Below are positions 9,898-40,529 of a stretch of 64,000 nt of DNA, piece by piece. The notes beneath the pieces are model-generated. The model ran no database searches. It saw nothing but the letters and a program-made list of their open reading frames with translations, and was not told the origin of the DNA. Origin of the DNA: Thermodesulfobacteriota bacterium (lineage in GTDB: Bacteria; Desulfobacterota; Desulfobacteria; Desulfobacterales; SURF-7); contig JBMORA010000001.1 in NCBI GenBank assembly GCA_049320885.1, forward strand, positions 132,095 through 196,094. Reading direction: 5' to 3'. How positions within the stretch are numbered: the first letter of the stretch is position 1; the number at the start of each line of letters is the position of its first letter. The position numbers and the translations under genes are program-made.

Positions 9898-9923
9898 TAT
9901 GAGCAGGGAGCCCATATTATTCC

Positions 9924-11384: not shown

Positions 11385-11433
11385 TCAATTCCTGTTGCCG
11401 ACTTGCTGAAAATGGTATCTATGCTGGAAACGA

Positions 11434-12600
11434 ATGGATCGCAGCTCCTCTACTTATAAGCAGTTCGAAAGTAAAAAAGGCCATCGGATTTTCCGTGCAA
11501 TTTTGGCCGTATCCTTTTTTTTTGTCAGCATGGAAATCACTGCCCGAATCGACGATTTTGCAAAATACCGTGCTCCGTTTTGGGAAAAGTATACTGCCGA
11601 TAGACTGCGTTCAAGAGATCGGAACGGAATTCGCCATAACGTACCCGGGAGTCGTTTTGAGAAATGGATCATCAATGCTTCCGGTTTTCGCGGTCCGGAA
11701 ATTGCTGTCAAAAAAAAGGCGGGAATCAAGCGAATTGTCTGCATGGGAACTTCCGAAACCTTCGGTTTATATGAACCCTCCGGTCAAGAGTGGCCGTCAC
11801 AATTATCCTCATTGCTGAGCAAATATCATGGATATGAAGTCATCAATACAGCCGTGGTAGGTCTCGAATTGGGCCTATACCAACCGTATATCCAGCAATA
11901 TATTATTAATTTTCAACCAAATATCATCATTCTGATGATCAACCCCTTTTCCTATGCCAGCGGGAGATATCGACGAGAAGCGGCATCTGAACAAGATCCA
12001 AATCACACTCCACAACAAGTGAAAAATCGACCGGGCATGGATTTATCGGGAGTTTCAGGGATTATCGATGGTTTGAGATTGCCGTCCAAGATGAAACAGA
12101 CATTCAAGCAGCTGATTCCGGAATCCGTATTGGCCACCTACCAACTATGGAATATGCGATGTCAAGTGAGTGCCATAGAGACTATTCGGTTGAAAGGAAA
12201 AAGCCCGAGCGATCACGCCTCCCCGGAAGGTCTCGCTCTCTTCCAAGCCAGAATCGAAGAGTTGATCAACTATCTGACTGAAAACCATATTAAAGTTATC
12301 CTGTGTTCTTACCCTGTATTGATCGATGCCGACAATATCGATCAATACCCGGCTGTCTTTTGGGACCATCGCAGATTCTACGTGGAACTTTCCTTTAAAG
12401 GGCTTATCGACGCTTCCATTCAATGTAATCAGGCCCTGCGGATCATGGCCGAAAGGCACCAAATCGCTTTTGTCGATCTTGACAGGGCAATTCCAAATGA
12501 TATGGACCATTTTGGGGATAATGTCCACTACACGGGTAAAGGCGCGAAACTTGTTGCCATGGAGTTGGAGAGGCAACTGGTTTCTGCACCCTCCATGTAA
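11434..12600 (+). CDS. membrane-anchored SGNH/GDSL hydrolase-type protein (probable O-acyl transfer partner of the MBOAT)
   Basis: N-terminal TM helix. Block I-like IVCMGTSETFG and block V-like GDNVHYT (DxxH). Positioned directly after the MBOAT gene. Confidence 0.65.
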   Translation: MDRSSSTYKQFESKKGHRIFRAILAVSFFFVSMEITARIDDFAKYRAPFWEKYTADRLRSRDRNGIRHNVPGSRFEKWIINASGFRGPEIAVKKKAGIKRIVCMGTSETFGLYEPSGQEWPSQLSSLLSKYHGYEVINTAVVGLELGLYQPYIQQYIINFQPNIIILMINPFSYASGRYRREAASEQDPNHTPQQVKNRPGMDLSGVSGIIDGLRLPSKMKQTFKQLIPESVLATYQLWNMRCQVSAIETIRLKGKSPSDHASPEGLALFQARIEELINYLTENHIKVILCSYPVLIDADNIDQYPAVFWDHRRFYVELSFKGLIDASIQCNQALRIMAERHQIAFVDLDRAIPNDMDHFGDNVHYTGKGAKLVAMELERQLVSAPSM

Positions 12601-15606: not shown

Positions 15607-15895
15607 AGTTATTAATGGCAATTCAATCTTTCCCAAGGAACGGAAATTTCCATCTTGATCATAATGATGTTTGTAACCTTTTTTAGCCATAATGCAAAAA
15701 ATGAAACATCGGTTCTACCGAGTATGAAGCCGACACCCTTTCTTTTCATCCTGCTTCTATGCTATGAAGGAATAATGCGATTGCCGTTGTCCTTGACGGA
15801 TTATTGGGGAAACACACCAAGATCAATAAATAATCAGGTCTTAATGGTTGGACTGAATCACATGCAAGATGAATCGAGGCCACGGTTATTATCGA

Positions 15896-15910
15896 TGGCA
15901 CAATGCTTGC
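15896..15910 (+). promoter_or_regulatory. sigma-54 (-24/-12) promoter, TGGCACAATGCTTGC
   Basis: Exact fit to TGGCAC-N5-TTGC. It lies about 60 nt upstream of ATG 15971 in an A+T-rich 364-bp intergenic region. Confidence 0.7.
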
Positions 15911-15970
15911 TTTTATTATGGCAAACAAAGCATTTGTTGGATTTTTTTAATAGAGAAGGAGGCTACGGCT

Positions 15971-17035
15971 ATGTTTAGAAAAAGCTTATGCATGGGATTA
16001 ATACTGTTATTGTCCATCCCCGCGGTGGTGTTTTCTGCGCCATCCATCACCAGTGTTACGGGTACAATCGCCAAAGACGAAATACTGACCATTACCGGGG
16101 CGGCTTTTGGTACAAAGGCGACTCCCAAACCATTCAAATGGGATAATTTTGAAAAAGGAACGCTCGGAGCAAAAGTCGGTGCCCCCAGTTCATTGAGCGC
16201 GAATACGACAAATTGGATTCTGAAATCTTCCGGAGTCGCCGGTCGCGAACCGGTTTACAACGGTACCCAACTACGAAAGAACAGCGCGCGTTCCTCATAC
16301 CATAACATGTCGGTGCCTGACGAAAATTGTTATGGCAGTGGTTTGGGTATCGACTTCGCATCCGAAGATTTTATTTATCTGACCTGGTGGGGATATTATG
16401 AAGAGACAGGCAATCCGACCGACAACTGGAAATACTTCCGGCATTACGGCCCGCCGGTACATGGAATTACGAAATTGACTAGTCCCGTCTATTACATGGA
16501 GGGAATTGTAACCGATTATGTTAACAAATCCATACCCAACAAGCAATGGGTCAGAATAGAATGTGCCTATAAAGCAGGCCTGGACGGTGCCGCCAAATTC
16601 TGGCTTCACACCACTTCACCGGAATCAATCATTTTAAACAGCGATATCAGTGGAGATTACTCCGGATCGTTCAAAGAGCTGCGGATCATGGATTATTACC
16701 GACGCATGGCCGCGGGCTCCACTGTCGTGGATCGAGGCCTAAATGCATGGCTTGACGATGTGTACGTCGATACCACCCAGGCGAGGGTGGAAGCGGGGAA
16801 TATGGAAACCTGGTCCGGCTGTACTCACCGTGAAATACAGATTCCCTCTAAATGGGAATCGAATTCCATTTCGATAACCTTCAATCAGGGTTCGTTCGAT
16901 AACGGGAAAACGGTGTTTGTCTATGTGGTGGATGCCAATGGGAGCGTCAATACCCAGGGATATCCCGTAACCATCGGCGGTACTGCGGCAGCCACGGCTC
17001 CGCCGGCGACCACGTTAAGCATCTCGACCAATTGA
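15971..17035 (+). CDS. secreted protein with IPT/TIG-like terminal domains (function unknown; glycan-binding or lyase-like is possible)
   Basis: AAGGAGG lies 9 nt before ATG 15971. Signal peptide MFRKSLCMGLILLLSIPAVVFSAP. N-terminal SITSVTG...LTITGAAFG and C-terminal ISITFNQG...VYVVDANG...PVTIGG beta-sandwich-like segments. Confidence 0.6.
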   Translation: MFRKSLCMGLILLLSIPAVVFSAPSITSVTGTIAKDEILTITGAAFGTKATPKPFKWDNFEKGTLGAKVGAPSSLSANTTNWILKSSGVAGREPVYNGTQLRKNSARSSYHNMSVPDENCYGSGLGIDFASEDFIYLTWWGYYEETGNPTDNWKYFRHYGPPVHGITKLTSPVYYMEGIVTDYVNKSIPNKQWVRIECAYKAGLDGAAKFWLHTTSPESIILNSDISGDYSGSFKELRIMDYYRRMAAGSTVVDRGLNAWLDDVYVDTTQARVEAGNMETWSGCTHREIQIPSKWESNSISITFNQGSFDNGKTVFVYVVDANGSVNTQGYPVTIGGTAAATAPPATTLSISTN

Positions 17036-22112: not shown

Positions 22113-24296
22113 CTACCTCATGGAAGGCGGCAGTTGGGTGAAATCATAATATTCGTAAAGACCGGTGTGAACGGAATTGAGATAGGTCAGCAACTGCTGG
22201 TCTGTATACCCATCGACGACATAACGCTTGATGAATCCCGTTTCAGCGCCGTTTTGCGAATTCCAGTTGGTGTAGAACATCCGGCCCTGGTGGAAGGTGT
22301 CGATATAGTATTTCCCGGAAAAGCAGGTGTTGAAGAAGATCATCTTGTATTTGCAGTCTTCCGGCTGGATGTCCTTGCTGTTGGTGGCATCTATGATGGT
22401 CTTGTTGCCGTACCGGGAGTCCTCGAAATGGGACCGGTATTCGTCCTGGTTGTCGATGCGGGAGGACTGCCGGGTGTTGGCGGGGTTGACCGCGGACAGA
22501 TAATCCGCGATCATCCGGCCGCTGCCACTGCCGGTAAGGGTCACGGTGACCGCACCCTCCACCACCGGATAGGTGCCGATGGAAGCAGTCACATAATTGC
22601 CGGCCGGTGTGTCGGCGGGTTCCCGCTGGTTCAGGGTGACGGTCCCAAGCACGGTGTTGTTCTGTTGGATGGTGTAGGTCACGGCTGTATCATTGTTCGG
22701 ATCCGGGTCATAGGTGACGGAAAAATCATAGGTGCCGGCCGGATTTCTGGTAGGATAGAATGCCAGGGTATACGTGAAGGTGTCCGCAATCGTCTGGTTG
22801 GGGGTGAAACTGTAGGTATACCCGCGGAATCCATAGAGGGTGCTGTTTTTCTGCACCGCCCAGTTGCCGCTGTATTCCACGTGGCTGAATTCCGGTTTTG
22901 AGTTGACGATGAAATAACTCGGGTTGTTCACCGGATTCGGCTTGGCGCCCGTGGGGGAATACCAAGCCGAGCCGCTGCCCTGGAAGCGCTCGAGGTATTG
23001 GCCGTTGGACGAGGCTTCCACCCGGTAGTGGGTGGGATCGCCCGGCAGGGTATAGGTCAGGTAATAATTGTAAGCCGGCAGGCGGCCCGCCGGATCATCC
23101 CAGCCATAGGGCCATTTGGCGTCGCTGCCGTCCTGATAGATGGGCGTCCAGTTGGGATAGGCCTGGCTGTAGCGGAACCCGGCGGTGGTGACATCCACCA
23201 TGTCCGAGGAGCAGTTGAAGATCAGGTTGTCGTCCACATAACGCACATTCTGGAGCGCGGTGTTAAACGGCGGGAAGGTCAGGCCCAGACCGTAATTGGA
23301 ATGCCCGCGGATCAGGATCACGGCGCCCTCTTCCCGGACTGCAGCCAGGAATTGTTCCTTGGTCTTCACCGGGTGGAAGAAATAGGTCACCCCGTTTTTG
23401 GGACTGGTGTAACGCCAGATCCCGTCCACCTTGACGGCGCCGTAGCGCGACAGGCTCTGGCCGGCCACTTCCGCGAAATTGGAAATGCCGCCGTAAATTT
23501 CCACGCAGTAGATATTTTCCGACGCGGAGGTCAGTTTGATGTAGGCCTCCTTCACCATGGTATCGCTGCCGAACTCATTGGAAGCGGTCAGGCTGACGGT
23601 ATAGTCACCGTCTTGGTCATACACATGGGCCGGATTCTCCTCGAAGCTGGTCTGACCGTCACCGAAATCCCAATACCATTCGGTGGCCGCGCCGCCGGTG
23701 CTCAGGTCCGTGAACTGGATCGTGGCAGGCGCACCGCCGATGGTTTTATTGGCGGAAAACTCCGCCACCGGCGGCAGGGTGTTGATCACCTCGGTGAACT
23801 TCACCGCATCGGCGCAGGTGGTATAGGTGCTGTTGGTGCCGGTTATGGTGACTGTGTATACAATACCGGCCACGAAGGAATAGGTTCCAAGGACATTCCA
23901 TTGCCCGCCGTTGACGCGCTGGTTGACCCGGACCGTGGCGGTTCCGTTGGCATGCCGGATGGCAATGGGCGCGCTGGTCACCCGGTTGGCAAACACCGTC
24001 CACCAGGCGGAGACTTCATATTCGGCTGTGGTGGGCGGAATGAAGGTATAGGTATAGGTCGCATTGTTTTTGGCATAGATGCTGTCCACACCATAGGGAT
24101 CCACGCCGCTGGAAACCAGCCACGTACCGGTATAGGACGTTTCATTGTCGCCGTTGTCGATGATGATGTCGGCCGCGGCAGAGGCGAGCCCCACCACCAT
24201 AGACAGTGTTAACAGGATAAATATACTGAATATACGGGCCGGAACCGGCCTCCATCTCGCATTTTTCTTTTCCGTGATGTTTCTGAAAGTGTTCAT
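22113..24296 (-). CDS. secreted multidomain protein, paralog 1 (one CBD-like+PKD module plus a conserved ~470-aa C-terminal region)
   Basis: GGAG lies 5 nt before ATG 24296. Signal peptide present. IIIDNGD...GTW...PYGVDS...NGGQWN...CADAVKFTE domain (golvesin/Xly-type CBD-like). PKD domain (WDFGDGQTS...NPAHVY). C-terminal region ends LYEYYDFTQLPPSMR. Confidence 0.85.
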   Translation of the reverse strand: MNTFRNITEKKNARWRPVPARIFSIFILLTLSMVVGLASAAADIIIDNGDNETSYTGTWLVSSGVDPYGVDSIYAKNNATYTYTFIPPTTAEYEVSAWWTVFANRVTSAPIAIRHANGTATVRVNQRVNGGQWNVLGTYSFVAGIVYTVTITGTNSTYTTCADAVKFTEVINTLPPVAEFSANKTIGGAPATIQFTDLSTGGAATEWYWDFGDGQTSFEENPAHVYDQDGDYTVSLTASNEFGSDTMVKEAYIKLTSASENIYCVEIYGGISNFAEVAGQSLSRYGAVKVDGIWRYTSPKNGVTYFFHPVKTKEQFLAAVREEGAVILIRGHSNYGLGLTFPPFNTALQNVRYVDDNLIFNCSSDMVDVTTAGFRYSQAYPNWTPIYQDGSDAKWPYGWDDPAGRLPAYNYYLTYTLPGDPTHYRVEASSNGQYLERFQGSGSAWYSPTGAKPNPVNNPSYFIVNSKPEFSHVEYSGNWAVQKNSTLYGFRGYTYSFTPNQTIADTFTYTLAFYPTRNPAGTYDFSVTYDPDPNNDTAVTYTIQQNNTVLGTVTLNQREPADTPAGNYVTASIGTYPVVEGAVTVTLTGSGSGRMIADYLSAVNPANTRQSSRIDNQDEYRSHFEDSRYGNKTIIDATNSKDIQPEDCKYKMIFFNTCFSGKYYIDTFHQGRMFYTNWNSQNGAETGFIKRYVVDGYTDQQLLTYLNSVHTGLYEYYDFTQLPPSMR

Positions 24297-24408
24297 AGTC
24301 TCCGTTCTCCCATTGTTATCTTGATACAAACAAGGATCATCATGTTGCGTGAATCCGGCCCACATCCATGGGCCGCATCCTTCCTGCTTTATGTACGGCA
24401 TCAGTAGA

Positions 24409-24423
24409 GCAATAGGCATGCCA
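24409..24423 (-). promoter_or_regulatory. sigma-54 (-24/-12) promoter of paralog 1, TGGCATGCCTATTGC on the minus strand
   Basis: Fits TGGCA(C/T)-N5-TTGC. It lies ~113 nt upstream of ATG 24296. The same element recurs before paralogs 2 and 3. Confidence 0.7.
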
Positions 24424-24520
24424 CCCGCCCCTGCCGGTCACAAAGAAATCCATTGTTATATTATTATGTAATTTGAAATATTTATAATATTTCAAAATCG
24501 AGCGGTTCCGACATGCAACC

Positions 24521-24556
24521 GGCTTGTGTAATTGTTTTCCTATTTATCATGTACCA
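24521..24556 (-). promoter_or_regulatory. conserved upstream block (candidate enhancer/UAS) of paralog 1
   Basis: Core TTTTCCTATTTAT (24535-24547) is identical to 27859-27871 and lies the same 112 nt from the -24 element. Confidence 0.45.
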
Positions 24557-24720
24557 TTTTACCGATATGCAGCACCTTACCGACTCATTTCTGCAACCCC
24601 GTTCCGTTGCAGGGAGGCATCCCACTCATTTTTTGCAGCACCAGGGGGTATCCAGATGCTATCGTTGGAGTTTCTTGTGGATGAATGCGGCTGGCGCGGA
24701 TGGCCGGGTGGGATCGTGCT

Positions 24721-24750
24721 CCCCGTGCGCCTGACAAAGGGCGCACGGGG
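24721..24750 (-). terminator. stem-loop downstream of paralog 2
   Basis: CCCCGTGCGCC-tgacaaag-GGCGCACGGGG, 16 nt after the stop at 24766. Confidence 0.45.
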
Positions 24751-24765
24751 AACAGGGCTGGCCTG

Positions 24766-27615
24766 CTACCTCATGGAAGGCGGCAGCTTGGTGAAATCAT
24801 AGTATTCATACAGGCCCGGATGTACGGAATTGATATAGGTCAGCAATTGCTGATCCGAATATCCATCCACGACATAGCGTTTGATGAATCCCGTTTCCGC
24901 GCCGTTCTGCGAATTCCAGTTGGTATAGAACATCCGGCCCTGGTGGAAGGTGTCGATGAAATATTTCCCGGAAAAGCAGGTGTTGAAGAACATCATTTTG
25001 TACTTGCAGTCTTCCGGCTGGATGTCCTTGCTGTTGGTGGCATCCAGGATGGTCTTGTTGCCGTACCGGGAATCCTCGAAATGGGACCGGTACTCATCCT
25101 GGTTGTCGATGCGGGAGGACTGCCGGGTGTTAAGGGGATTGACCGCCATCAAATAGTCCGCGATAATCCGGCCGCTGCCGCTGCCGGTAACCGTAACAGT
25201 CACAGCCCCTTCCACCACGGGATAGGTGCCAAGGGAAACGATTACATACTTGGCTGCCGCCGTATCCGCGGGTTCCCGCTGATTCAGGGTCACGGTCCCG
25301 AGCACGGTGTTGTTCTGTTGAATGGTATAGGTCACGGCCGTGTCATTGTTCGGATCCGGGTCATAGGTGACCCGAAAATCATAGGTTCCTGCCGGATTTC
25401 TGGGCGCATAGAATGCCAGGGTATAGGTGAAGACATCTGCTCCCGTCTGGTTGGGGGTATAGCTGTAGGTATATCCTATGAATCCATAAAGCGAGCTGTT
25501 TCTCTGGGCGGCCCAGTTGCCGCTGTATTCCACGTGGCTGAATTCCGGTTTCGTGTTCACAATAAAATAACTCGGATTGTTCAACGGATCGGGCTTGGCA
25601 CCGGTGGGGGAATACCAGGCCGGGCCGCTTCCCGCGAAGCGCTCGAGGTATTGGCCGTTGGACGAGGCTTCCACCCGGTAATGCGTCGGATCGCCTGGCA
25701 GCGTGTAGGTCAGGTAATAATTGTAGGCCGGCAGGCGGCCCGCCGGATCATCCCAGTCATAGGGCCATTTGGCGTCCGTTCCGTCTTGATAGATGGGGGT
25801 CCAGTTGGGATAGGCCTGGCTGTAGCGGAACCCGGCCGTGGTCACATCCACCATGTCCGAGGAACAGTTGAAGATCAGATTGTCGTCCACATAGCGCACA
25901 TTCTGGAGCGCGGTGTTGAACGGCGGGAAGGTCAGGCCCAGACCGTAATTGGAATGCCCGCGGATCAGGATCACGGCGCCCTCCTCCCGGACCGCCGCCA
26001 GGAACTGTTCCTGGGTCTTGACCGGATGGAAGAAATAGGTCACGCCGTTTTTGGGGCTGGTGTAGCGCCAGAGTCCGTCCACCTTGACGGCGCCGTACCG
26101 CGACAGGCTCTGGCCCACGACTTCCGCGTAGTTGGTGATGCCGCCGTAGATTTCAACACAGTAGATGTTTTCCGACGCAGAGGTCAATTTGATGTAGGCC
26201 TCCTTCACCATGGTGCCGCTGCCGAACTCATTGGAAGCGGTCAGGCTGACGGTATAGTCACCGTCTTGGTCATACACATGGGCCGGATTTTCCTCGAAGC
26301 TGGTCTGGCCGTCGCCGAAATCCCAATACCATTCGGTGGCCGCGCCGCCGGTGCTCAGGTCCGTGAACTGGATCGTGGCGGGAGCGCCGCCGGAGGTTTT
26401 ATTGGCGGAAAACTCCGCCACCGGCGGCAGGGTGTTGATCACCTCGGTGAACTTCACCGCATCGGCGCAGGTGGTATAGGTCGTGGAAACGCCGGTTATC
26501 GTGACTGTGTAGACCATTCCGGCTACAAAGGAAAAGGTCCCCAGGGAATTCCATTGTCCGCCGTTCAGGCGCTGGTTGACATAGACGGTTGCTGTTCCGT
26601 TTGCATGCTGGATGCGTATCGGCGCGTTTGTGACCCGGTTCGAATAGTAAGTCCACCAAGCGGACACTTCATATTCGGTAGTGGTGGGTGGAATGAAGGT
26701 ATACGTATAGGCGGCATTGTTCTTGGCATAAACGCTGTCGACGCCGTAGGGATCCACCGCAGTGGAAACCAGCCAGGTTCCGGTGAAGGAAGTGCCATTG
26801 TCCCCATTGTCGATGATGACTTCACCCGGATCTCCGCCGGTTCCGGCGCTGATGGTGATGTAGGCCGTCTTGACAGCCGTATCGCTGCCGAATTCATTGG
26901 CGGCGGTGAGGGTCACGGTGTACACGCCTTCCTGCTCATATACATGGGCCGGATTCTGTTCGGTACTGGTCTGGCCGTCGCCGAAATCCCACAGCCAATC
27001 CGCAGGAATACCGCCCGTGCTCCGGTCGCTGAACTGGATGGTGGAAGGAACCCCGCCGGTGGTCCTGTCCGCTGAAAAATCGGCTGCCGGCGGTAGCGTA
27101 TTGATGATTTCGGTGAATTTCACCGCATCCGCGCAGGTGGTGTAGGTGCTGTTGGTGCCGGTGATGGTGACCGTGTACACAACCCCGGCGACAAAGGAGA
27201 AGGTCCCCAGGGAATTCCATTGCCCGCCGTTCAGACGCTGGTTGACATAGACGGTTGTTGTTCCGCTGGCGTGCTGGATGCGGATCGGCGCGCTGGAAAC
27301 CCGGTTCGAAAAATAGGTCCACCAGGCAGACACCTCGTATTCCGAAGTGGTCGGCGCCGTGAAGCTATAGGTATAGGTTGCGTTGTTTTTACAGTAGATG
27401 CTGTCCACGCCATAGGGGTTGACACCGCTCGATACCAGCCAGGTTCCGGTTGCGGAAGTCCCGCTGTCGCCGTTGTCAATGATCACATCGGCTGATGAAC
27501 TGGCGGCTCCGAACACCAGCGAAAGGGACAGCATGATCACAACCGGTAAAAAATAGGCGTGCAGCTGCCTTGGCCTCATTTTTTTCTTTTGCAAATTATT
27601 CTTGAATGAATTCAT
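24766..27615 (-). CDS. secreted multidomain protein, paralog 2 (two CBD-like+PKD modules plus the conserved C-terminal region)
   Basis: GGAGG lies 6 nt before ATG 27615 (MNSFKNNLQKKK..., matching the N-termini of the other paralogs). Same domain plan as paralog 1 with one extra module. Confidence 0.85.
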   Translation of the reverse strand: MNSFKNNLQKKKMRPRQLHAYFLPVVIMLSLSLVFGAASSSADVIIDNGDSGTSATGTWLVSSGVNPYGVDSIYCKNNATYTYSFTAPTTSEYEVSAWWTYFSNRVSSAPIRIQHASGTTTVYVNQRLNGGQWNSLGTFSFVAGVVYTVTITGTNSTYTTCADAVKFTEIINTLPPAADFSADRTTGGVPSTIQFSDRSTGGIPADWLWDFGDGQTSTEQNPAHVYEQEGVYTVTLTAANEFGSDTAVKTAYITISAGTGGDPGEVIIDNGDNGTSFTGTWLVSTAVDPYGVDSVYAKNNAAYTYTFIPPTTTEYEVSAWWTYYSNRVTNAPIRIQHANGTATVYVNQRLNGGQWNSLGTFSFVAGMVYTVTITGVSTTYTTCADAVKFTEVINTLPPVAEFSANKTSGGAPATIQFTDLSTGGAATEWYWDFGDGQTSFEENPAHVYDQDGDYTVSLTASNEFGSGTMVKEAYIKLTSASENIYCVEIYGGITNYAEVVGQSLSRYGAVKVDGLWRYTSPKNGVTYFFHPVKTQEQFLAAVREEGAVILIRGHSNYGLGLTFPPFNTALQNVRYVDDNLIFNCSSDMVDVTTAGFRYSQAYPNWTPIYQDGTDAKWPYDWDDPAGRLPAYNYYLTYTLPGDPTHYRVEASSNGQYLERFAGSGPAWYSPTGAKPDPLNNPSYFIVNTKPEFSHVEYSGNWAAQRNSSLYGFIGYTYSYTPNQTGADVFTYTLAFYAPRNPAGTYDFRVTYDPDPNNDTAVTYTIQQNNTVLGTVTLNQREPADTAAAKYVIVSLGTYPVVEGAVTVTVTGSGSGRIIADYLMAVNPLNTRQSSRIDNQDEYRSHFEDSRYGNKTILDATNSKDIQPEDCKYKMMFFNTCFSGKYFIDTFHQGRMFYTNWNSQNGAETGFIKRYVVDGYSDQQLLTYINSVHPGLYEYYDFTKLPPSMR
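26160..27491 (-). repeat. 2 x 666-bp in-frame tandem coding repeat (CBD-like+PKD module), boundaries approximate
   Basis: The IDNGD anchor codons recur at 26806 and 27472 on the plus strand, exactly 666 nt apart. Confidence 0.85.
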
Positions 27616-27732
27616 ATTCATCCTCCGATGGTTGTTGTCCCGCTTGGAAACAAGAATGCGCCATATTTTATGAATCCACCTGTCATCCATGTGGCGCGAA
27701 CTTCCTAATTTTTCCTGTATGAACGTTTTAAC

Positions 27733-27747
27733 GCAATAGACATGCCA
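27733..27747 (-). promoter_or_regulatory. sigma-54 (-24/-12) promoter of paralog 2, TGGCATGTCTATTGC on the minus strand
   Basis: Fits TGGCA(C/T)-N5-TTGC, ~118 nt upstream of ATG 27615. Confidence 0.7.
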
Positions 27748-27848
27748 GCCCCGATACCAAAAAATGACGGGAAAATCAATTTTAATTTCTATTTTATTCA
27801 AACGAGTTATAAAATATTGCCGTCCAGCCGCGCTGGCCCGGAAAGAAC

Positions 27849-27876
27849 TATGCAATATTTTTCCTATTTATTGTGA
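27849..27876 (-). promoter_or_regulatory. conserved upstream block (candidate enhancer/UAS) of paralog 2
   Basis: AACTATGCAATATTTTTCCTATTTATTGTG. It shares the TTTTCCTATTTAT core with paralog 1 and the AACTATGCA...TTCCTAT part with paralog 3. Confidence 0.45.
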
Positions 27877-28028
27877 AAAAATATACCGAAATAGCACCGG
27901 TCCGTTATAGTCCAAATTCTGATTGATCTCTATCGGCTTTTTTCAGATGGGAGCAGTCGCGGATGACAGGGAGGGTTCCGGTTTCCAGTGCATCCATCAA
28001 GGACGAACCGGAAACCGGGAATGGCCCG

Positions 28029-31000
28029 CTACCGCATGGAAGGCGGCAGTTTGGTGAAATCATAGTATTCATACAGGCCCGGATGAACGGAATTCACATA
28101 GTCCAGCAACTGCTGATCCGAATATCCATCCACCACATAGCGTTTGATGAATCCCATTTCAGCACCGTTTTCCGAATTCCAGTTGGTATAGAACATCCGT
28201 CCCTGATGGAAGCTGTCGATGAAATATTTCCCGGAAAAACAGGTATTGAAAAACATCATTTTGTATTTACAGTCTTCCGGACGGATGTCCTGGCAATTGG
28301 TGGTGTCCAGGATGGTCTTGTTGCCGTACCGGGAGTCCTCGAAATGGGACCGGTATTCGTCATTGTTGTCGACCGCGAAGAACTGCCAGGGGATGGCCGG
28401 ATTGAATGCCGCCAGACCATCCGCGATCATCCAGCCGCTGCCGCTGCCGGTCAGGGTAACGGTGACCGCGCCTTCCGCCACGGAAAAGGTTCCAAGAGAG
28501 GCGAGCACATAACTCCCGGCCGGTGTGCCGGCGGGTTCCTGCTGGTTCAAGGTCACGGTGCCGAGCACGGTATTGTTCTGTTGAATGGTGTAGGTCACGG
28601 CCGGGTCATTGGTCGGCTCCGGATCATAAGTGACTTTGAAGTCGTAGGTACCGGCTGGATTTCTGGGTGCGTAAAACGTCAGGGTATAGGTAAACGTATC
28701 GGCGATTGTCTGGTTGGGAGTGTAGCTGAAGGTATATCCCGCGATCCCATAAAGGGTGGCGTCTTTCTGCACCGCCCAGTTGCCGCTGTGCTCCACGTGG
28801 CTGTATTCCGGTCTGGTATTGGCGATGAAAACCTCCGGATTGCTCACCGGATCGGGCTTGGCGCCCGTGGGGGAATACCAGGCCGGACCGCTGCCGGCGA
28901 AACGCTCAAGGTATTTTCCGGTGGAGGAGGATTCCACCCGGTAGTGGGTGGGATCGCCCGGCAGGGTGTAGGTCAGATAATAATTGTAGGCCGGCGTGCG
29001 GCCCGCCGGATCATCCCAGGCATAGGGCCAAATGGCGTCCGTGCCGTCCTGGTAGATGGGCGTCCAGTTGGGATAGGCCTGGCTGTACCGCAGACCGGCC
29101 GTGCTGACGTCCACCATGTGGGAGGAACAGTTGAAAATCAGGTTGTCGTCCACATAACGCACATTCTGGAGCGCGGTGTTAAACGGCGGGAAGGTCAGGC
29201 CCAACCCGTAATTGGAATGCCCGCGGATCAGGATCACGGCACCCTCCTCCCGGACCGCGGCCAGGAACTGTTCCTGGGTCGTGACCGGATGCAGAAAATA
29301 GGTCACGCCGGTATTGGGATTGGTATAGCGCCAGATGCCGTCCACCTTGACGGCTCCGTACCGCGACAGGCTCTGGCCGGCGACTTCCGCATAATCGGTG
29401 ATGCCGCCGTAAATTTCCACACAGTAGATATTTTCCGACGCGGAGGTCAGCTTGATATAGGCCGCCTTCACCATGGTGTCGCTGCCGAATTCATTGGCAG
29501 CGGTCAGGCTCACGGTATACTCGCCCTCCTGCTCATACACATGGGCCGGATTCTGCTCGGTGCTGGTCTGGCCGTCGCCGAAATCCCACAGCCATTCGGT
29601 GGCGTTACCGCCGGAGCTCAGATCCGTGAACTGGATGGTGGCGGGTGCGCCGCCGATGGTCTTGTTCGCTGAGAAATCAGCTGCCGGTGGGAGCGTGTTG
29701 ATGATTTCGGTGAATTTCACCGCATCGGCGCAGGTGGTATAGGTGCTGTTGGCACCGGTGATGGTGACCGTGTACACAACCCCGGCGACAAAGGAGAAGG
29801 TCCCCAGGGAATTCCATTGCCCGCCGTTCAGACGCTGGTTGACATAGACGGTTGCAGTTCCGCCGGCATGCTGGATGCGGATCGGTGCGTTGGTGACCCG
29901 GTTCGAAAAGTAGGTCCACCAGGCGGAAACTTCATATTCAGCCGTGGTGGATGGAATGAAGGTATATGTATAGGCGGCATTGTTCTTGGCATAAACGCTG
30001 TCGACGCCGTAGGGATCCACTGCAGTGGAAACCAGCCAGGTGCCGGTGAAGGAGGTGCCATTGTCCCCGTTGTCGATGATGACTTCTCCCGGGTCTCCGC
30101 CCGTTCCGGCGGTAATGGTGATATAGGCCGTCTTGACAGCCGTATCGTTGCCGAATCCATTGGTGGCGGTGAGGGAGACGGTGTACACGCCTTCCTGCTC
30201 ATATACATGGGCCGGATTCTGTTCGGTGCTGGTCTGGCCGTCGCCGAAATCCCACAGCCATTCGGTGGGGATACCGCCCTCACTTTGATCGGTGAACTGG
30301 ATGGTGGCAGGAGCGACACCGGTGGTTCTGTCCGCTGAGAAATCGGCTGCCGGTGGGAGCGTGTTGATGATTTCGGTGAATTTCACCGCATCGGCGCAGG
30401 TGGTGTACGTGCTGTTGGCGCCAGTGATGGTGACCGTGTAGGTTATTCCGGCGACAAAGGAGAATGTCCCCAGGGAATTCCATTGGCCGCCGTTCAGGCG
30501 CTGGTTGACATAGACGGTTGTTGTTCCGCTGGCATGCTGGATGCGGATCGGAGCGCTGGAAACTCGGTTCGAAAAATAGGTCCACCAGGCAGATACCTCA
30601 TATTCGGACGTTTTCGGCGCCGTGAAACTGTAGGTATAAGCGGCATTGTTCTTGGCATAAACGCTGTCAACACCGTAGGGATCCAGCGCGGTGGAAACCA
30701 GCCAGGTTCCGGTTGCGGAAGTTCCATAATCCCCGTTGTCGATGATGATTTCCCCCGGGTCGCCGCCTGTTCCGGCGGTAATGGTGATGTAGGCCGTCTT
30801 GACAGCCATATCGCTGCCGTATTCATTGGCGGCGGTGAGGGTGACGGTGTACACGCCCTCCTGCTCATACACGTGCGATGGATTCTGCCCGGTGCTGGTC
30901 TGGCCGTCGCCGAAATCCCACAGCCAATCCGTGGGAATACCGCCCGTGCTCCGGTCGCTGAACTGGATGGTGGCCGGAACCATGCCGGTGGTCCTGTCCG

Positions 31001-31544
31001 CTGAAAAATCGGCTGCCGGCGGGAGCGTATTGACAATCTCGGTGAACTTCATTGCATCGGCGCAGGTGGTGTACGTGCTGTTGGCGCCGGTGATGGTGAT
31101 TGTGTAGGTAATTCCGGCGACAAAGGAGAATGTCCCCAGGGAATTCCATTGGCCGCCGTTCAGGCGCTGGTTGACATAGACGGTTGTTGTTCCGCTGGCA
31201 TGCTGGATGCGGATCGGGGCGCTGGAAACCCGGTTCGAAAAGTAAGTCCACCAGGCAGACACCTCGTATTCCGAAGTTGTCGGCGCCGTGAAACTGTAAG
31301 TGTAGGTGGCATTGTTCTTGGCATAAACGCTGTCAGCGCCGTAGGGATCCAGCGCGGTGGAAACCAGCCAGGTGCCGGTGGCGGAAGTCCCGCTGTCGCC
31401 GTTGTCGATGATGATGTCAGCCGCTTCACCGGCCGTTCCAGCCGCCAATGTCAGGACCAGCATGATAACCACATGGAACAAAGAGGTCTGTAACCGCCAA
31501 AGCCACATGTTGTTCTTTTCCGCGTTGTTTCTGAATCTGTTCAT
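28029..31544 (-). CDS. secreted multidomain protein, paralog 3 (three CBD-like+PKD modules plus the conserved C-terminal region)
   Basis: ATG 31544 (MNRFRNNAEKNN...). Signal peptide present. Three IIDNGD-initiated modules followed by the same C-terminal region as paralogs 1 and 2. Confidence 0.85.
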   Translation of the reverse strand: MNRFRNNAEKNNMWLWRLQTSLFHVVIMLVLTLAAGTAGEAADIIIDNGDSGTSATGTWLVSTALDPYGADSVYAKNNATYTYSFTAPTTSEYEVSAWWTYFSNRVSSAPIRIQHASGTTTVYVNQRLNGGQWNSLGTFSFVAGITYTITITGANSTYTTCADAMKFTEIVNTLPPAADFSADRTTGMVPATIQFSDRSTGGIPTDWLWDFGDGQTSTGQNPSHVYEQEGVYTVTLTAANEYGSDMAVKTAYITITAGTGGDPGEIIIDNGDYGTSATGTWLVSTALDPYGVDSVYAKNNAAYTYSFTAPKTSEYEVSAWWTYFSNRVSSAPIRIQHASGTTTVYVNQRLNGGQWNSLGTFSFVAGITYTVTITGANSTYTTCADAVKFTEIINTLPPAADFSADRTTGVAPATIQFTDQSEGGIPTEWLWDFGDGQTSTEQNPAHVYEQEGVYTVSLTATNGFGNDTAVKTAYITITAGTGGDPGEVIIDNGDNGTSFTGTWLVSTAVDPYGVDSVYAKNNAAYTYTFIPSTTAEYEVSAWWTYFSNRVTNAPIRIQHAGGTATVYVNQRLNGGQWNSLGTFSFVAGVVYTVTITGANSTYTTCADAVKFTEIINTLPPAADFSANKTIGGAPATIQFTDLSSGGNATEWLWDFGDGQTSTEQNPAHVYEQEGEYTVSLTAANEFGSDTMVKAAYIKLTSASENIYCVEIYGGITDYAEVAGQSLSRYGAVKVDGIWRYTNPNTGVTYFLHPVTTQEQFLAAVREEGAVILIRGHSNYGLGLTFPPFNTALQNVRYVDDNLIFNCSSHMVDVSTAGLRYSQAYPNWTPIYQDGTDAIWPYAWDDPAGRTPAYNYYLTYTLPGDPTHYRVESSSTGKYLERFAGSGPAWYSPTGAKPDPVSNPEVFIANTRPEYSHVEHSGNWAVQKDATLYGIAGYTFSYTPNQTIADTFTYTLTFYAPRNPAGTYDFKVTYDPEPTNDPAVTYTIQQNNTVLGTVTLNQQEPAGTPAGSYVLASLGTFSVAEGAVTVTLTGSGSGWMIADGLAAFNPAIPWQFFAVDNNDEYRSHFEDSRYGNKTILDTTNCQDIRPEDCKYKMMFFNTCFSGKYFIDSFHQGRMFYTNWNSENGAEMGFIKRYVVDGYSDQQLLDYVNSVHPGLYEYYDFTKLPPSMR
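29423..31420 (-). repeat. 3 x 666-bp in-frame tandem coding repeat (CBD-like+PKD module), boundaries approximate
   Basis: Anchor codons at 30069, 30735 and 31401, spaced exactly 666 nt. Confidence 0.85.
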
Positions 31545-31653
31545 TACGTCCGCCCCCGGGTTTGTTATCTGAATCACTAAATGGTTTTGCCTGTTACAGC
31601 GTCAATCCGCCAGCACCTATGGTATCTATTATCAATAGCGCCCCATCGCAAAA

Positions 31654-36743: not shown

Positions 36744-38876
36744 CTACCAATACCAGCCGATCGTGCCGGTCACCCCCCGCACATTGTCATAGTCGACCTG
36801 GATGACAATCGGCCATTTCAGATACTCCGGGAAATAACTCAGCCCCCCGCCATAGAGGGCCTGAATTTTGCTGTCCGACGATTCCTCATAGATTCGCCCC
36901 GTGGCTTCCGAGCGGGAAAGCTCGCTTTCGGTGTATATGGTGCACCCGCCGATGGCCGACAGGTAGAGATCGGTGGAACCGATCTCCACCCCCAATTTGC
37001 CGAGCAGGCCGAATTCGGTTCCCTTTCTCTCACTCTCCAACCGGATGCAATCATCATTGGGACATGGCGAGGAAATCGTTGGCTCCGGGAGAGCCCTGTC
37101 GCTATGGGGAATAAACGGGATTCCGACTCCGAACAACAGGTTCAGATTGCCGAGGCGGATTTCATTGGCACCGGTTTCCACCGTGACATTAAATTCATCC
37201 GCCTCGCCGCCGCCGCCGCCGCCCGCGGCAAAATATCCTGCCCGGGCGGGAGTGGTCATGGACAGAAGCCCCACCAGCAGGAACGACCAAATGATCAGCC
37301 GGGTTCTCCTTGCGGCCCGTGCGGCCGCGATCACCAGGAATAGGGCGGACGCGAGCAGAAAGAGGCCATGCCGCCCTTCATATGCACTGTCTGATATGCT
37401 GGACGGCGACAGGGCGCCGATAAAGCAACCACCGATGTCCACAACGGGAAGCGCCTCGTCCGGCCGCACCGTAACGGTGGTCGTGTCCGTATGCGATATG
37501 CCGGATCCGGTTGAGACGGTTAACTGAAACTGGAGGACAACCCCACTGGCGCCTCCCAGGGGCGCCACAAAAGAGGCAACCCGGCCCTCCGGTTCTTTCA
37601 ACCTGACTGTGGGTCCGGAGGTTTGCCGCCATTGATAGACCGCGGTCCCGTCCGGATCATAGGAGCTGCTTCCATCCAACGTCACCTCCTGATCGGCGAA
37701 GGCTTCCTGATCCGCGCCGGCGTCCGCCACCGGGGGGTAGGACAGGCTCGATCCGGCTCCAGCAAAGGCCTCACCGGCAATCGGCTGGTATTCGACAACG
37801 GGTAAGCGGTAGTCATTGTTGTGATCATAAATCGAATTGTCGATGACTGTCGAATCGGCGGTCCCCCACCAGTTGCCGGTCATCGCCAGTGTGGACAGGC
37901 TTTCCGCCCAGTCGTAGGTATATACGATGTATCCGGGATAGCCCTCCAGACTGAAATTGTTTCCCGTGATCCGCAATTCAAAAGCGGCCGCGTCCGCAAC
38001 GCTGACGGCGATAAGACCGACGACGGAATGTTCGGCCTGCAACTCATTGGCGGTGATGCCGATTTCGGCCGGAGTTACCGGACCATCGGAAACAGTGGCG
38101 TTGAAAACAAGCCGCATAGCGCTTCCGATGGCATTCGAATCCGTGTCGACCACCGTATTGTTGACCACCTGAAGATCATGGGAACGGATGGAGAAATCCA
38201 AGGCCCGCTTGTTATTCAACAAATAATTGTCGGCGACAAGCCCTCCCTCGGCTGAAAACAAAATGCCGGTTGCATTGCCGTAGATCTGGTTTGAAACGAT
38301 CCGGATATCACCGCTGGGGGAAATGAGGTTGCTTGAATTGGCTGCGGCGGTGGATGAGATCCCCGCCGAGGAACTGAACCGAATCGCATTGCCGACAATA
38401 TAGGGCATGGCGTTGGCGGTGACAATCATCCCGGTGACATCGGGATCATTTCCGCCATACTCGACGATGCAATAGGCGATTACGCTTCCGGTTCCGGTGG
38501 ATTCGTTATAATCCCGGCTGCTGTCACTGAAGACAATCGCCCCCCAGGGAATCCGCCTGTCCAGACTGGTAAACACAATGGGGGTAGCGGGGGTTCCCCT
38601 GGCGACAAGGGTCCCCTCCACCCGGATGGTGTGCCCCCGGCTGCCGTCCGGACGCGGCGTGAAAATCACCTCCACACCGGGTTCAATGGTCAGGACGGCG
38701 CTCTGTTCGATCAGAACATCGCCGGTTATGACGATGGGGCTGTCCGATACATTCCAGCCGGTGTCCGAACTGATGACACCGTTGAAATTCATGGAGGCGA
38801 ACACGGATAACGGTCCGCCCGACACCAGGATCAGCATCAAGAAAGACCCGACGACAAGGCCTTTTCGTATTCGCAT
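36744..38876 (-). CDS. secreted right-handed beta-helix + PKD-like protein fused in frame to a TM/Arg-cluster segment and a C-terminal small beta-barrel
   Basis: GGAGG lies 5 nt before ATG 38876. Signal peptide present. Parallel beta-helix-like repeats (NNTVV, GNAIRF, SNQIYGN). PKD/REJ-like domain (VTLDGSSSYDPDGTAVYQWRQTSGP). Hydrophobic helix plus AARAARRTR. The last ~165 aa show an alternating beta-strand pattern ending GTIGWYW. Confidence 0.75.
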   Translation of the reverse strand: MRIRKGLVVGSFLMLILVSGGPLSVFASMNFNGVISSDTGWNVSDSPIVITGDVLIEQSAVLTIEPGVEVIFTPRPDGSRGHTIRVEGTLVARGTPATPIVFTSLDRRIPWGAIVFSDSSRDYNESTGTGSVIAYCIVEYGGNDPDVTGMIVTANAMPYIVGNAIRFSSSAGISSTAAANSSNLISPSGDIRIVSNQIYGNATGILFSAEGGLVADNYLLNNKRALDFSIRSHDLQVVNNTVVDTDSNAIGSAMRLVFNATVSDGPVTPAEIGITANELQAEHSVVGLIAVSVADAAAFELRITGNNFSLEGYPGYIVYTYDWAESLSTLAMTGNWWGTADSTVIDNSIYDHNNDYRLPVVEYQPIAGEAFAGAGSSLSYPPVADAGADQEAFADQEVTLDGSSSYDPDGTAVYQWRQTSGPTVRLKEPEGRVASFVAPLGGASGVVLQFQLTVSTGSGISHTDTTTVTVRPDEALPVVDIGGCFIGALSPSSISDSAYEGRHGLFLLASALFLVIAAARAARRTRLIIWSFLLVGLLSMTTPARAGYFAAGGGGGGEADEFNVTVETGANEIRLGNLNLLFGVGIPFIPHSDRALPEPTISSPCPNDDCIRLESERKGTEFGLLGKLGVEIGSTDLYLSAIGGCTIYTESELSRSEATGRIYEESSDSKIQALYGGGLSYFPEYLKWPIVIQVDYDNVRGVTGTIGWYW

Positions 38877-38966: not shown

Positions 38967-40247
38967 TCACGGGTTTAACCGGACTTCCCGCTCGGGCTTC
39001 AGGGATACCGATAATATTCCGCGGTTCTCCACATAGTTGTTGGCGGTATCGTCCGAGTATAACTTCCGGAAAACGTATTCCAGCCGCACAGCCATCCAGG
39101 GCAATGCCTGATAAACCAGTCCGGCGTTGCTTCGCCATATGGTGTCTTCCCGCTCGGGAGCCTGGTCCATGTAGATGTTCCGGCGGTAACCGGTGCCGAT
39201 CGAACCGGACAGCCTTTTGCCCAGCTGCTGGCTCACGCTTCCCGACATATGATAAAAAGGGCTGAACCCCAGATTTTCAGCTCCATAAGAGGCGATATCA
39301 TACCCGACCTTGCCGGAGACGGCAATGGCGCTGCCTTCATCCCAGCTGTAGGCGCTTTCTATGGAGCCGACAATTCCGGTATCATCATCACCCGCCTCGG
39401 TGTCCCGGAAAAAATAACCGAAACTGGCCCCCAAACTTGAATTGGCTTGTTCCTTCCAGTCGAATCCCACCAGGGAACTGTGGACCTGATAGTCATCCCC
39501 CCCGGCCATGAAAACCGTATCCACGTGCGAATAGGCGATGTACCCCTCGAATTGACGCCCAAAACGCTTGATCAGACGCAGTTTGTTCATCACATCGTCA
39601 AAGTCTTCAGAAATTTCAAGGTCGTTACGTGTATATTTGCATTCCCATTCCAGGGCATATCGGCTGGGCGACATCCAGTACATGAGCAAAAGACTTGGTC
39701 GATAGTATTCCTTGTTTTCAAGACTCGGGTCTTCGTTGTCGATCAGATAGTATTCATACCGGAGTGCGATGGAATCGTTTTTGCCGAATTGATTCAGGAT
39801 GCCGAAACTGGCCGTATTGGTCTGATAGGGCTCGCGGCCCTGCCGGACGGTGAAATCCGTATCGGAAATCGGATCCTCCGTATACAGATACCGGTTTCCC
39901 AGTTCGATCCTGGTATTGTCGGTAATCTTGCCCCAGGCCCCGACGGCTGCGCTGTGGCGCAAAATGTTGTTTTCGGGGAAACGGGTATAGGAGGCGTAGG
40001 TCGGGTTGTAGGAAATGGTGAGGGCGCTGTTCCTCTCGTACATGCTCAAATCCACCCCCGGATTGAGTGTGGTGATATAGTCATATTCCTCATCCTCGGG
40101 GGTCAGGCTGGCATTGTCCGTGAAAGTGCTGCTGATGGTGAGTCCGGGCGTGAACTGAATGGTGGCGGCGGCTCTTGCCGTCATCAGAAGAAAGCACAGC
40201 ACAATAACGCCCAGATATCTCATGGCATGATAACTATATGAATTCAT
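38967..40247 (-). CDS. outer-membrane beta-barrel protein (EPS-locus associated)
   Basis: Signal peptide (LGVIVLCFLLMTARAAA). Y/G/S/N/D-rich alternating strands throughout. The start is uncertain (ATG 40247 or 40223; the TTG 40256 extension is unlikely). Confidence 0.6.
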   Translation of the reverse strand: MNSYSYHAMRYLGVIVLCFLLMTARAAATIQFTPGLTISSTFTDNASLTPEDEEYDYITTLNPGVDLSMYERNSALTISYNPTYASYTRFPENNILRHSAAVGAWGKITDNTRIELGNRYLYTEDPISDTDFTVRQGREPYQTNTASFGILNQFGKNDSIALRYEYYLIDNEDPSLENKEYYRPSLLLMYWMSPSRYALEWECKYTRNDLEISEDFDDVMNKLRLIKRFGRQFEGYIAYSHVDTVFMAGGDDYQVHSSLVGFDWKEQANSSLGASFGYFFRDTEAGDDDTGIVGSIESAYSWDEGSAIAVSGKVGYDIASYGAENLGFSPFYHMSGSVSQQLGKRLSGSIGTGYRRNIYMDQAPEREDTIWRSNAGLVYQALPWMAVRLEYVFRKLYSDDTANNYVENRGILSVSLKPEREVRLNP

Positions 40248-40529
40248 TGTGCGCAATAAATGTCGTTCTCTTCCAATCCGCTTGATTTACACGAATGCCG
40301 GACATTTCTTTCTTCCGCTCTCCGCGATTGATGACAATATGCATGAGACAAGCAGTTCCGCGCCCTGTTTTTCCTTGAAAAACAGACGCAAGTTCACCGA
40401 ACCCGGCATGGCGGCAGGGGGCTGTTTTCTCAAGTGCCCTTTTATATTAAAAAAACAATTACGTGTCAAGGAGATATCACCGATTTTTCCGGATAAATAA
40501 TATCATTGAGATATCGATGTCGATGCACT

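Follow-up and report, generated by a model that had tools for sequence, protein, structure and literature searches.

A conserved fusion of a beta-helix/PKD passenger with a predicted small outer-membrane barrel in Desulfobacterales, joined by a probable internal signal peptide

Viruses routinely make polyproteins that are split by an internal signal peptide, but such polyproteins are, to our knowledge, very rare in bacteria. One bacterial case is FbcH of Bradyrhizobium japonicum, a cytochrome b/c1 precursor which Thony-Meyer and colleagues reportedly found in 1991 to be cut at an internal signal peptide. Here we analyse a gene in a stretch of 64,000 nucleotides from a Thermodesulfobacteriota bacterium of the order Desulfobacterales (GenBank assembly GCA_049320885.1, contig JBMORA010000001.1, positions 132,095 to 196,094), called the window below. 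Its product joins a secreted beta-helix/PKD passenger to a small predicted outer-membrane beta-barrel. The architecture is built from known kinds of parts, and the combination itself is real, conserved and unusual. We consider it probable that the gene encodes a polyprotein of two paired envelope proteins, most likely split by signal peptidase into passenger and barrel.

A second point of comparison is the sorting of exported proteins through short signal motifs. CPBP/Rce1-like "myxosortases" cut Cys-containing tripartite signals, and their substrates then reach the cell surface via the type II secretion system (T2SS; 10.1101/2023.06.07.544157; PMC11980579). The NCBIfam model NF041763, "CFI-box putative sorting motif", was catalogued by NCBI curators, covers 14 positions and has a curated cut-off of 15.9 bits. 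Related to it is the domain model NF041770, CFI-box-CTERM, of 69 positions. Our literature search found no study on the CFI-box or on bacterial polyproteins with an internal signal peptide.

The fused gene and its conservation

The open reading frame (ORF) occupies 36744..38876 on the minus strand of the window, the strand of all gene parts described below. Its 710-amino-acid (aa) product (P0001) carries each part listed in the original prediction, which was made from the DNA letters alone, and the order of these parts is kept in about 30 fused homologues. The chain opens with the Sec-type signal peptide noted there (residues 1-27, 38796..38876), read from the sequence as MRIRK, a hydrophobic core and VFA↓S (arrows mark predicted cleavage sites), with a modelled helix at residues 5-20. 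The beta-helix-like region recognised in the original prediction is a right-handed passenger head with an NWWG cap (residues 29-365, 37782..38792). AlphaFold2 (AF2) models residues 29 to about 365 as stacked short strands, with a predicted local distance difference test score (pLDDT) mostly of 85-95. The NosD match of this region is weak in the window protein itself; homologues and split orthologues match PF13229 Beta_helix and PF05048. The domain previously described as PKD/REJ-like is a K319L-like PKD domain (residues 386-470, 37467..37721; PF22352, E 4.7e-14) that Foldseek also matches to the PKD structure 2yrl. PF28492 appears among the precomputed Pfam matches of the window protein and several homologues.

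The passenger is followed by a CFI-box-like motif, GGCFIGALS (residues 482-490, 37407..37433), in which the family alignment shows no variation at C484 and F485. The stretch 476-500, with IGGCFIGAL at 481-489, is disordered in the model. A first transmembrane helix, TM1, comes next and would act as a stop-transfer segment (residues 504-519, 37320..37367; modelled helix 496-520). A basic loop of presumably cytoplasmic location, RAARRTR (residues 520-526, 37299..37319), then leads into a second hydrophobic helix, TM2 (residues 527-546, 37239..37298; modelled helix 526-540), which ends in P-A-R-A↓G-Y. The remainder (residues 547-710, 36747..37238) is predicted from the AF2 model and Foldseek to form an eight-stranded outer-membrane beta-barrel, whose strand 1 is rich in Gly, whose long loop contains IPHSD..CPNDDC and whose last residues are GTIGWYW. 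The eight strands are modelled across residues 546-709 of the full chain.

A homologue search found 24 close relatives of about 990 aa, mostly from metagenome-assembled genomes of Desulfobacteraceae and from metagenomes, with 46-58% identity across the whole alignment. The reading frame is open through the junction in all 24. They differ from the window protein by about 280 additional residues of PKD repeats inserted in the beta-helix. The window protein is a natural short form without this block of 3-4 PKD repeats, which would lie at residues ~255-268 (window ~38090-38120). More distant fused forms range from 350 to 1790 aa and retain the hairpin formed by TM1, the loop and TM2 (P0121, P0122, P0124, P0127-P0130, L012). 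All fused forms share one order: C-F-[IVL] and a spacer precede a hydrophobic helix, a positively charged loop connects it to the next helix, and small-x-small↓G-[YF] then leads into the barrel. A contig from the source sample is identical over the entire gene at a depth of 21.7, and an independent sediment metagenome contains 100%-identical pieces covering 37302-37452, the part of the junction with the CF motif, TM1 and the loop. The comparison of sequences confirms the fusion as genuine and conserved among Desulfobacterales, rather than an artefact, because about 30 sequences obtained independently, from different samples, have an open junction and the source-sample contig agrees.

Junction, barrel and split gene pairs

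From the invariant C-F to the barrel, the hairpin is variable in sequence and keeps its physico-chemical pattern across the 32 fused sequences in which we measured it. A polar spacer comes first and leads into an uncharged hydrophobic stretch; the positive loop then separates this from another hydrophobic stretch, 13-23 residues long, after which positions -3/-1 are small and G-[YF] follows. The uncharged TM1-like stretch, itself variable in sequence, was recognised in 30 sequences, the script's choice of motif having failed in the remaining two. The loop has a net charge of +2 to +6 in every sequence, and positions -3/-1 are A/A in 28. TM2 of the window protein has the features of a Sec/signal peptidase I (SPase I) signal peptide, namely RAARRTR, then LIIWSFLLVGLLSM, then TTP-A-R-A↓G, and the same pattern recurs in all 32 fused sequences. 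Stand-alone barrels in relatives start with Met-Lys/Arg, a hydrophobic core and AxA, and align with TM2 column for column. By this comparison, TM2 is the barrel's own predicted export signal, homologous to the signal peptides of stand-alone barrels and carrying a conserved A-x-A↓G-Y site. A second signal-peptide-like stretch had been noticed at this place, and residues 527-546, ending ARA↓GY, do align with real N-terminal signal peptides. In the model, the TM2 helix spans residues 526-540 and strand 1 begins at residue 546, leaving no linker that could span the periplasm. The barrel could thus not reach the outer membrane unless it were cut off.

Three other interpretations of the junction were dropped. 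A twin-arginine signal at RRTRLI would require an RR pair that is not conserved in homologues. Hedgehog- or intein-like autoprocessing at G↓CF is at odds with the polar spacer and transmembrane helices that follow the motif, and the model of the C-terminal domain shows a membrane barrel with no Hint fold. The 'lipo-invert' tail NF058595 gave weak matches over the hairpin (E 0.085-0.24) in 2 of 18 members, which we treat as compositional similarity; our literature search yielded nothing on this tail.

The original prediction had proposed a small C-terminal beta-barrel ending in GTIGWYW and had called for its structure to be predicted. Modelled alone, residues 547-710 (164 aa) form eight strands with a pLDDT of 89.9, and the best matches in the PDB are the transmembrane domain of OmpA, Ail, OmpX and NspA (Foldseek TM 0.4-0.55, probability 1.0). 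As in small outer-membrane proteins (OMPs), eight antiparallel strands close a barrel in the model and the C-terminus is aromatic (...GWYW). The barrel alone has no Pfam or NCBIfam match at E<=10, and weak matches to hidden Markov models (HMMs) of OmpA occur in 2 of 18 family members. The barrel is thus confidently modelled as an OmpA/OmpX-like eight-stranded fold that is new to the Pfam and NCBIfam libraries searched.

With a profile built from the C-terminal module, a search of 1.84 billion representative proteins retrieved 131 barrel relatives. Most are stand-alone proteins of 175-200 aa, and these match from profile position ~52-60, which corresponds to the start of TM2, to the end. The family shares the C-terminal aromatic signature G-x-[IV]-G-[WF]-x-[WF] and an invariant G-G-G-x-G-G that extends to the stand-alone members. 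The corresponding Gly6 of the window protein (residues 552-557) had been taken for a linker, but it belongs to beta-strand 1. In a few relatives (P0138, P0149, P0151), a periplasmic-looking N-terminal domain of about 100 aa is joined straight to strand 1 without a hairpin, an OmpA-like layout in reverse.

A search for homologues with the two halves as separate genes had been put forward as a check on the fusion, and such pairs exist. Among genome and metagenome loci collected with the barrel profile, 13 distinct split loci (L007, L010, L011, L013-L015, L017-L021, L043, L048; L045, L049 and L050 repeat three of them) carry a gene for a beta-helix protein with a Sec signal and K319L-PKD (multi-PKD) domains immediately upstream of a stand-alone barrel gene. 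Both genes lie on the same strand, usually 10-80 nt apart. The split passengers are 30-52% identical to the window passenger and end in ...[ST]-G-C-F-I-[SG]-T. In most of them, C-F-I is followed by 3-9 residues and a stop codon; those of L011, L013 and L045 have a tail of about 35 residues without a transmembrane helix, and that of L007 continues with a spacer, a transmembrane segment, a basic tail and a stop. The L007 form is a plausible precursor of the fusion, which could arise from it by loss of one stop codon. Only this type could be converted into a viable fusion by stop loss, because in a fusion lacking TM1 the signal peptide of the barrel would become a stop-transfer anchor, and the barrel would be trapped in the cytoplasm. 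The same requirement would account for the presence of TM1 and a positive loop in all fused forms.

Among 301 genomes sampled from the order, the barrel occurs in 25, belonging to 18 of 156 genera, and mostly once per genome; 9 of the frames are fused and 19 stand-alone. An intermolecular disulfide between passenger and barrel was considered, as the barrels then seen paired with CF passengers contained a Cys (in the loop CP[HN] or in a C-terminal GWCW) and orphan barrels contained neither. We rejected it as a general mechanism: the L048 pair combines a GCFI passenger with a Cys-free barrel, and L040 is a loop-Cys barrel without passenger.

CFI-box motif, candidate machinery and gene neighbourhood

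Comparison with the catalogued motif identifies the Gly/Cys segment of the window protein as a probable sub-threshold copy of the CFI-box, in which C-F-I is the conserved unit and the transmembrane/Arg part is optional. The tail sequences of split orthologues score 12.2-14.3 bits with NF041763, also below the cut-off, and other proteins of the window genome score 16.3-22.5 bits. Elsewhere in this genome, C-F-I-[SGT]-[STA]-[LM] behind a linker that is acidic or rich in Gly forms the end of at least nine large ORFs. L064, L065, L066, L067, L069, L070, L072 and L073 (contigs 17, 49, 59, 34, 57, 44, 7 and 42, respectively) belong to this set. In seven of the ORFs, the matched motif is followed by 0-8 residues and a stop. 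In L070 it precedes a spacer, a transmembrane segment and RKKRR, and in L066 a transmembrane-like stretch. The CFI motif of the window protein is internal, 226 residues from the protein end.

The original prediction had seen in this segment the tripartite look of a C-terminal sorting signal and had likened it to exosortase or rhombosortase substrates. The Cys motif, transmembrane helix and Arg cluster are indeed present here, but they are not the conserved unit of the family, which keeps only C-F-[IV]; most split orthologues lack the transmembrane/Arg part. The likeness to substrates of either enzyme does not extend beyond this look: the window protein has no PEP motif and no TIGR02595, PEP-CTERM or GlyGly-CTERM match, no sorting domain was matched, and the motif is instead that of NF041763. 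Exosortase genes, which had been suggested as worth looking for, are present in the genome in two copies (EpsH; C1:122482-123222 and C18:23857-24621). The first lies about 10 kb before the start of the window, beside the exopolysaccharide locus.

A candidate for the processing of CFI-box proteins is located on contig 21 of the window genome (L068). At 9066-12313, the genes of a HEAT-repeat membrane protein and a CPBP/Rce1-like protease overlap, the pair spanning 9066-10897, and a T2SS-F gene comes next. A CFI-box protein ending in ...NNGGGCFIGTLR is encoded 5 kb from this pair (15641-16688), and its gene is followed by one for a PlsC-type acyltransferase. The genome has two PF02517 (CPBP) genes, neither of them near the window, and CPBP genes are common in control genomes. 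Among the 301 genomes, CFI-box matches at E<=0.1 occur in 121, of which 115 exceed the curated cut-off. Presence of the CFI-box is associated with presence of the HEAT partner of CPBP (odds ratio (OR) 11, p 3e-19, phylogeny ignored). Of the 25 genomes with the barrel, 21 have the CFI-box (OR 9.2, p 5e-6, phylogeny likewise ignored) and 22 the HEAT protein, the three misses being genomes of 53-81% completeness. We propose the HEAT-CPBP pair as a candidate CFI-box processing enzyme on the basis of these genomic associations. The barrel is rarer than the CFI-box (25 versus 121 genomes), which points to a client-specific partner rather than to core machinery of CFI-box sorting.

The window gene stands in a minus-strand run of genes, with no convincing terminator around it. 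Downstream genes encode an ArnC-like GT2, an ATP-grasp enzyme, a PaaK-like ligase and an aminotransferase, and the locus is of the exopolysaccharide type. Directly upstream lies the gene of a 429-aa BBP2_2/TIGR03016-like outer-membrane barrel (38967..40256, minus strand; family matches). Its presence there is conserved only in the closest subfamily, and we rejected it as a universal partner for this reason. Eight split loci (L010, L011, L013, L015, L017, L018, L020, L021) have genes for a TolC-like OEP, HlyD and GAF-HlyD downstream of the barrel. The split loci, with the TolC-like OEP after the barrel, and the window subfamily, with BBP2_2 upstream, both place a second outer-membrane channel gene beside the pair. 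Elsewhere in the window (22113-31577, minus strand), three tandem paralogous secreted proteins of 768, 1029 and 1182 aa carry one, two and three copies, respectively, of a module of CBM-like and PKD domains on a shared C-terminal domain, without a CFI-box or barrel.

Proposed processing, alternatives and known systems

We suggest the following route for the window protein. The N-terminal signal peptide would direct the beta-helix/PKD passenger through Sec until TM1 halts transfer, with the Arg-rich loop remaining in the cytoplasm. TM2 would then re-initiate export as a signal peptide, and SPase I would cleave after ARA, between residues 546 and 547. The freed product of 164 aa could be inserted by the beta-barrel assembly machinery (BAM) into the outer membrane as an eight-stranded barrel. 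The passenger would stay tethered to the inner membrane through the TM1-loop-TM2 hairpin and might next be processed at or after the CFI-box by the machinery that serves the other CFI-box proteins of the genome, for which the HEAT-CPBP pair beside the T2SS gene on contig 21 is the candidate. The barrel could serve as the dedicated outer-membrane partner of the passenger, displaying or holding it. The comparative evidence is strong for the predicted anatomy behind the steps from export to BAM. Of the three readings offered in the original prediction (a fusion of two genes, a self-anchoring surface-display arrangement, or two products from one ORF), the last is the best supported, given the homology of TM2 with the signal peptides of stand-alone barrels and the retained AxA, and a novel self-anchoring display would also be conceivable; we infer the cleavage itself, as we do physical contact between passenger and barrel.

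Besides the indirect nature of these two steps, several observations weigh against such a polyprotein and its sorting. The window motif reaches 11.9 bits with NF041763, against a cut-off of 15.9, and residues 470-561 have no match to NF041770, MYXO-CTERM or any other sorting-domain HMM at E<=10. Orphan barrels without a CFI passenger exist (L022-L028, L040), and 100 genomes with the CFI-box have no barrel. Looking for a conserved CPBP/Rce1 gene beside the module, we found a CPBP gene within 6 kb at just one barrel locus, L004, and that gene belongs to another type. The CFI model of 14 positions has low sensitivity, and the co-occurrence statistics across the 301 genomes of the order are uncorrected for phylogeny.

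Among alternatives, the one that survives best, although we judge it improbable, is that internal translation initiation is the main source of the barrel. A Shine-Dalgarno-like AAGGAGA, read from the sequence (37305..37311), stands in frame 6 nt before CTG-ATC-ATT, with CTG as codon 527, and a near-cognate start at CTG, ATC or ATT would yield signal peptide plus barrel. At the homologous spot, L008 and L009 carry GGAGA, 8 nt and ATG (MRHR...), and L004 has an in-frame ATG (MKLAAIL...). The window loop itself contains no ATG, GTG or TTG, however, and L005 (P0003) has neither a Shine-Dalgarno-like sequence nor a start codon there, which argues against a conserved requirement. An origin as remnants of a formerly separate gene would explain such Shine-Dalgarno and ATG sequences equally well. 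Full-length translation would still yield a fused chain that needs the same hairpin logic, so that internal initiation may supplement polyprotein processing but could not replace it.

Slightly less probable still is that the chain stays uncut, its hairpin serving as inner-membrane anchor and its C-terminal beta-domain remaining on the periplasmic side, in which case there would be no outer-membrane barrel. Internal signal peptides can act as uncleaved anchors, and the cleavage of the window protein is deduced from its sequence. Against this stand the conserved AxA↓G site and the stand-alone homologues, which are ordinary OMP precursors with signal peptides. The family also keeps its C-terminal aromatic signature and the OmpA/OmpX-like eight-strand model, and no linker is long enough to cross the periplasm.

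We regard a type V-like autotransporter, in which the C-terminal barrel would carry a covalently attached passenger across the outer membrane, as very unlikely. The window protein resembles type Va autotransporters in its order of N-terminal signal peptide, beta-helical passenger and C-terminal barrel with an aromatic end. It differs in having eight strands instead of twelve, a size difference already pointed out in the original prediction, and no PF03797 match. Two hydrophobic helices with a positive loop, forming a hairpin with an internal signal peptide, occupy the place where a pore-filling linker would be expected, and the halves are separable, most relatives encoding them apart. An assembly or sequencing artefact, in which a lost stop codon or a frameshift joins two ordinary genes, has a negligible chance of being correct and was rejected: split versions of the pair do occur in relatives, so that the gene is a fusion of two genes in the evolutionary sense, but about 30 independent sequences of differing sample origin share the open junction, and both the source-sample contig and, over part of the junction, the second metagenome agree with it.

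Returning to the preferred polyprotein, a more specific and clearly more tentative idea is that the small barrel is a dedicated outer-membrane receptor or anchor of a single CFI-box client, and that the fusion is an SPase-cut polyprotein delivering passenger and anchor at 1:1. If true, this would be the first known case of a bacterial outer-membrane protein arising from an internal signal peptide. The passenger-barrel Rosetta stone and the HEAT-CPBP pair would together give a first genetic handle on CFI-box surface attachment. Making an outer-membrane barrel via an internal signal peptide would represent a new route of OMP biogenesis. The passenger-barrel pair is also the first candidate functional partner for a tag that is catalogued and unstudied, and the HEAT-CPBP co-occurrence points to a testable candidate for the processing enzyme. 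In its exopolysaccharide setting, the pair may explain how a glycan-acting beta-helix protein of the sugar-binding type is retained at the surface of sulfate-reducing biofilm bacteria.

Several described systems share individual features with the window protein. The N-terminal domain of OmpA, OmpX, Ail and NspA have the same predicted eight-strand fold as the window barrel, which lies outside these families by sequence. Its own family is set apart by the Gly-rich first strand G-G-G-x-G-G and by a long conserved loop, IPH.D..LP..T...CP[HN].[DE], together with a D-Y-D-N-R-R-G hairpin. Proteins of the CFI-box class (NF041763/NF041770) are likewise Sec-exported, with C-F-I separated from the last Ig-like domain by an acidic or Gly-rich linker. 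The class includes both a short-tail flavour and a flavour with a transmembrane segment and basic tail (L070, L007). In the window protein, by contrast, the motif is internal, below the cut-off and followed by a second signal peptide of predicted cleavable type and a barrel.

Signals of the MYXO-CTERM/MrtX, JDVT-, Synerg- and CGP-CTERM types have counterparts in C484, the helix at 504-519 and RAARRTR, here likewise on a PKD-rich exported protein, and the window genome also has a CPBP protease beside a T2SS gene. Unlike these signals, the window protein has a 13-aa spacer between motif and transmembrane helix (counted from the Cys, about 10-22 aa in the family as a whole), and its family has no conserved residues in that helix and no HMM match. 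The segment is also not C-terminal, with 184 residues beyond the Arg cluster, and the motif persists in orthologues without the transmembrane/Arg part.

The closest parallel in organisation is FbcH, in which one bacterial ORF likewise reportedly gives rise to two envelope proteins through an internal signal peptide located after a preceding transmembrane segment. The proteins concerned are unrelated, and both FbcH products stay at the inner membrane, whereas the second product of the window gene would go to the outer membrane.

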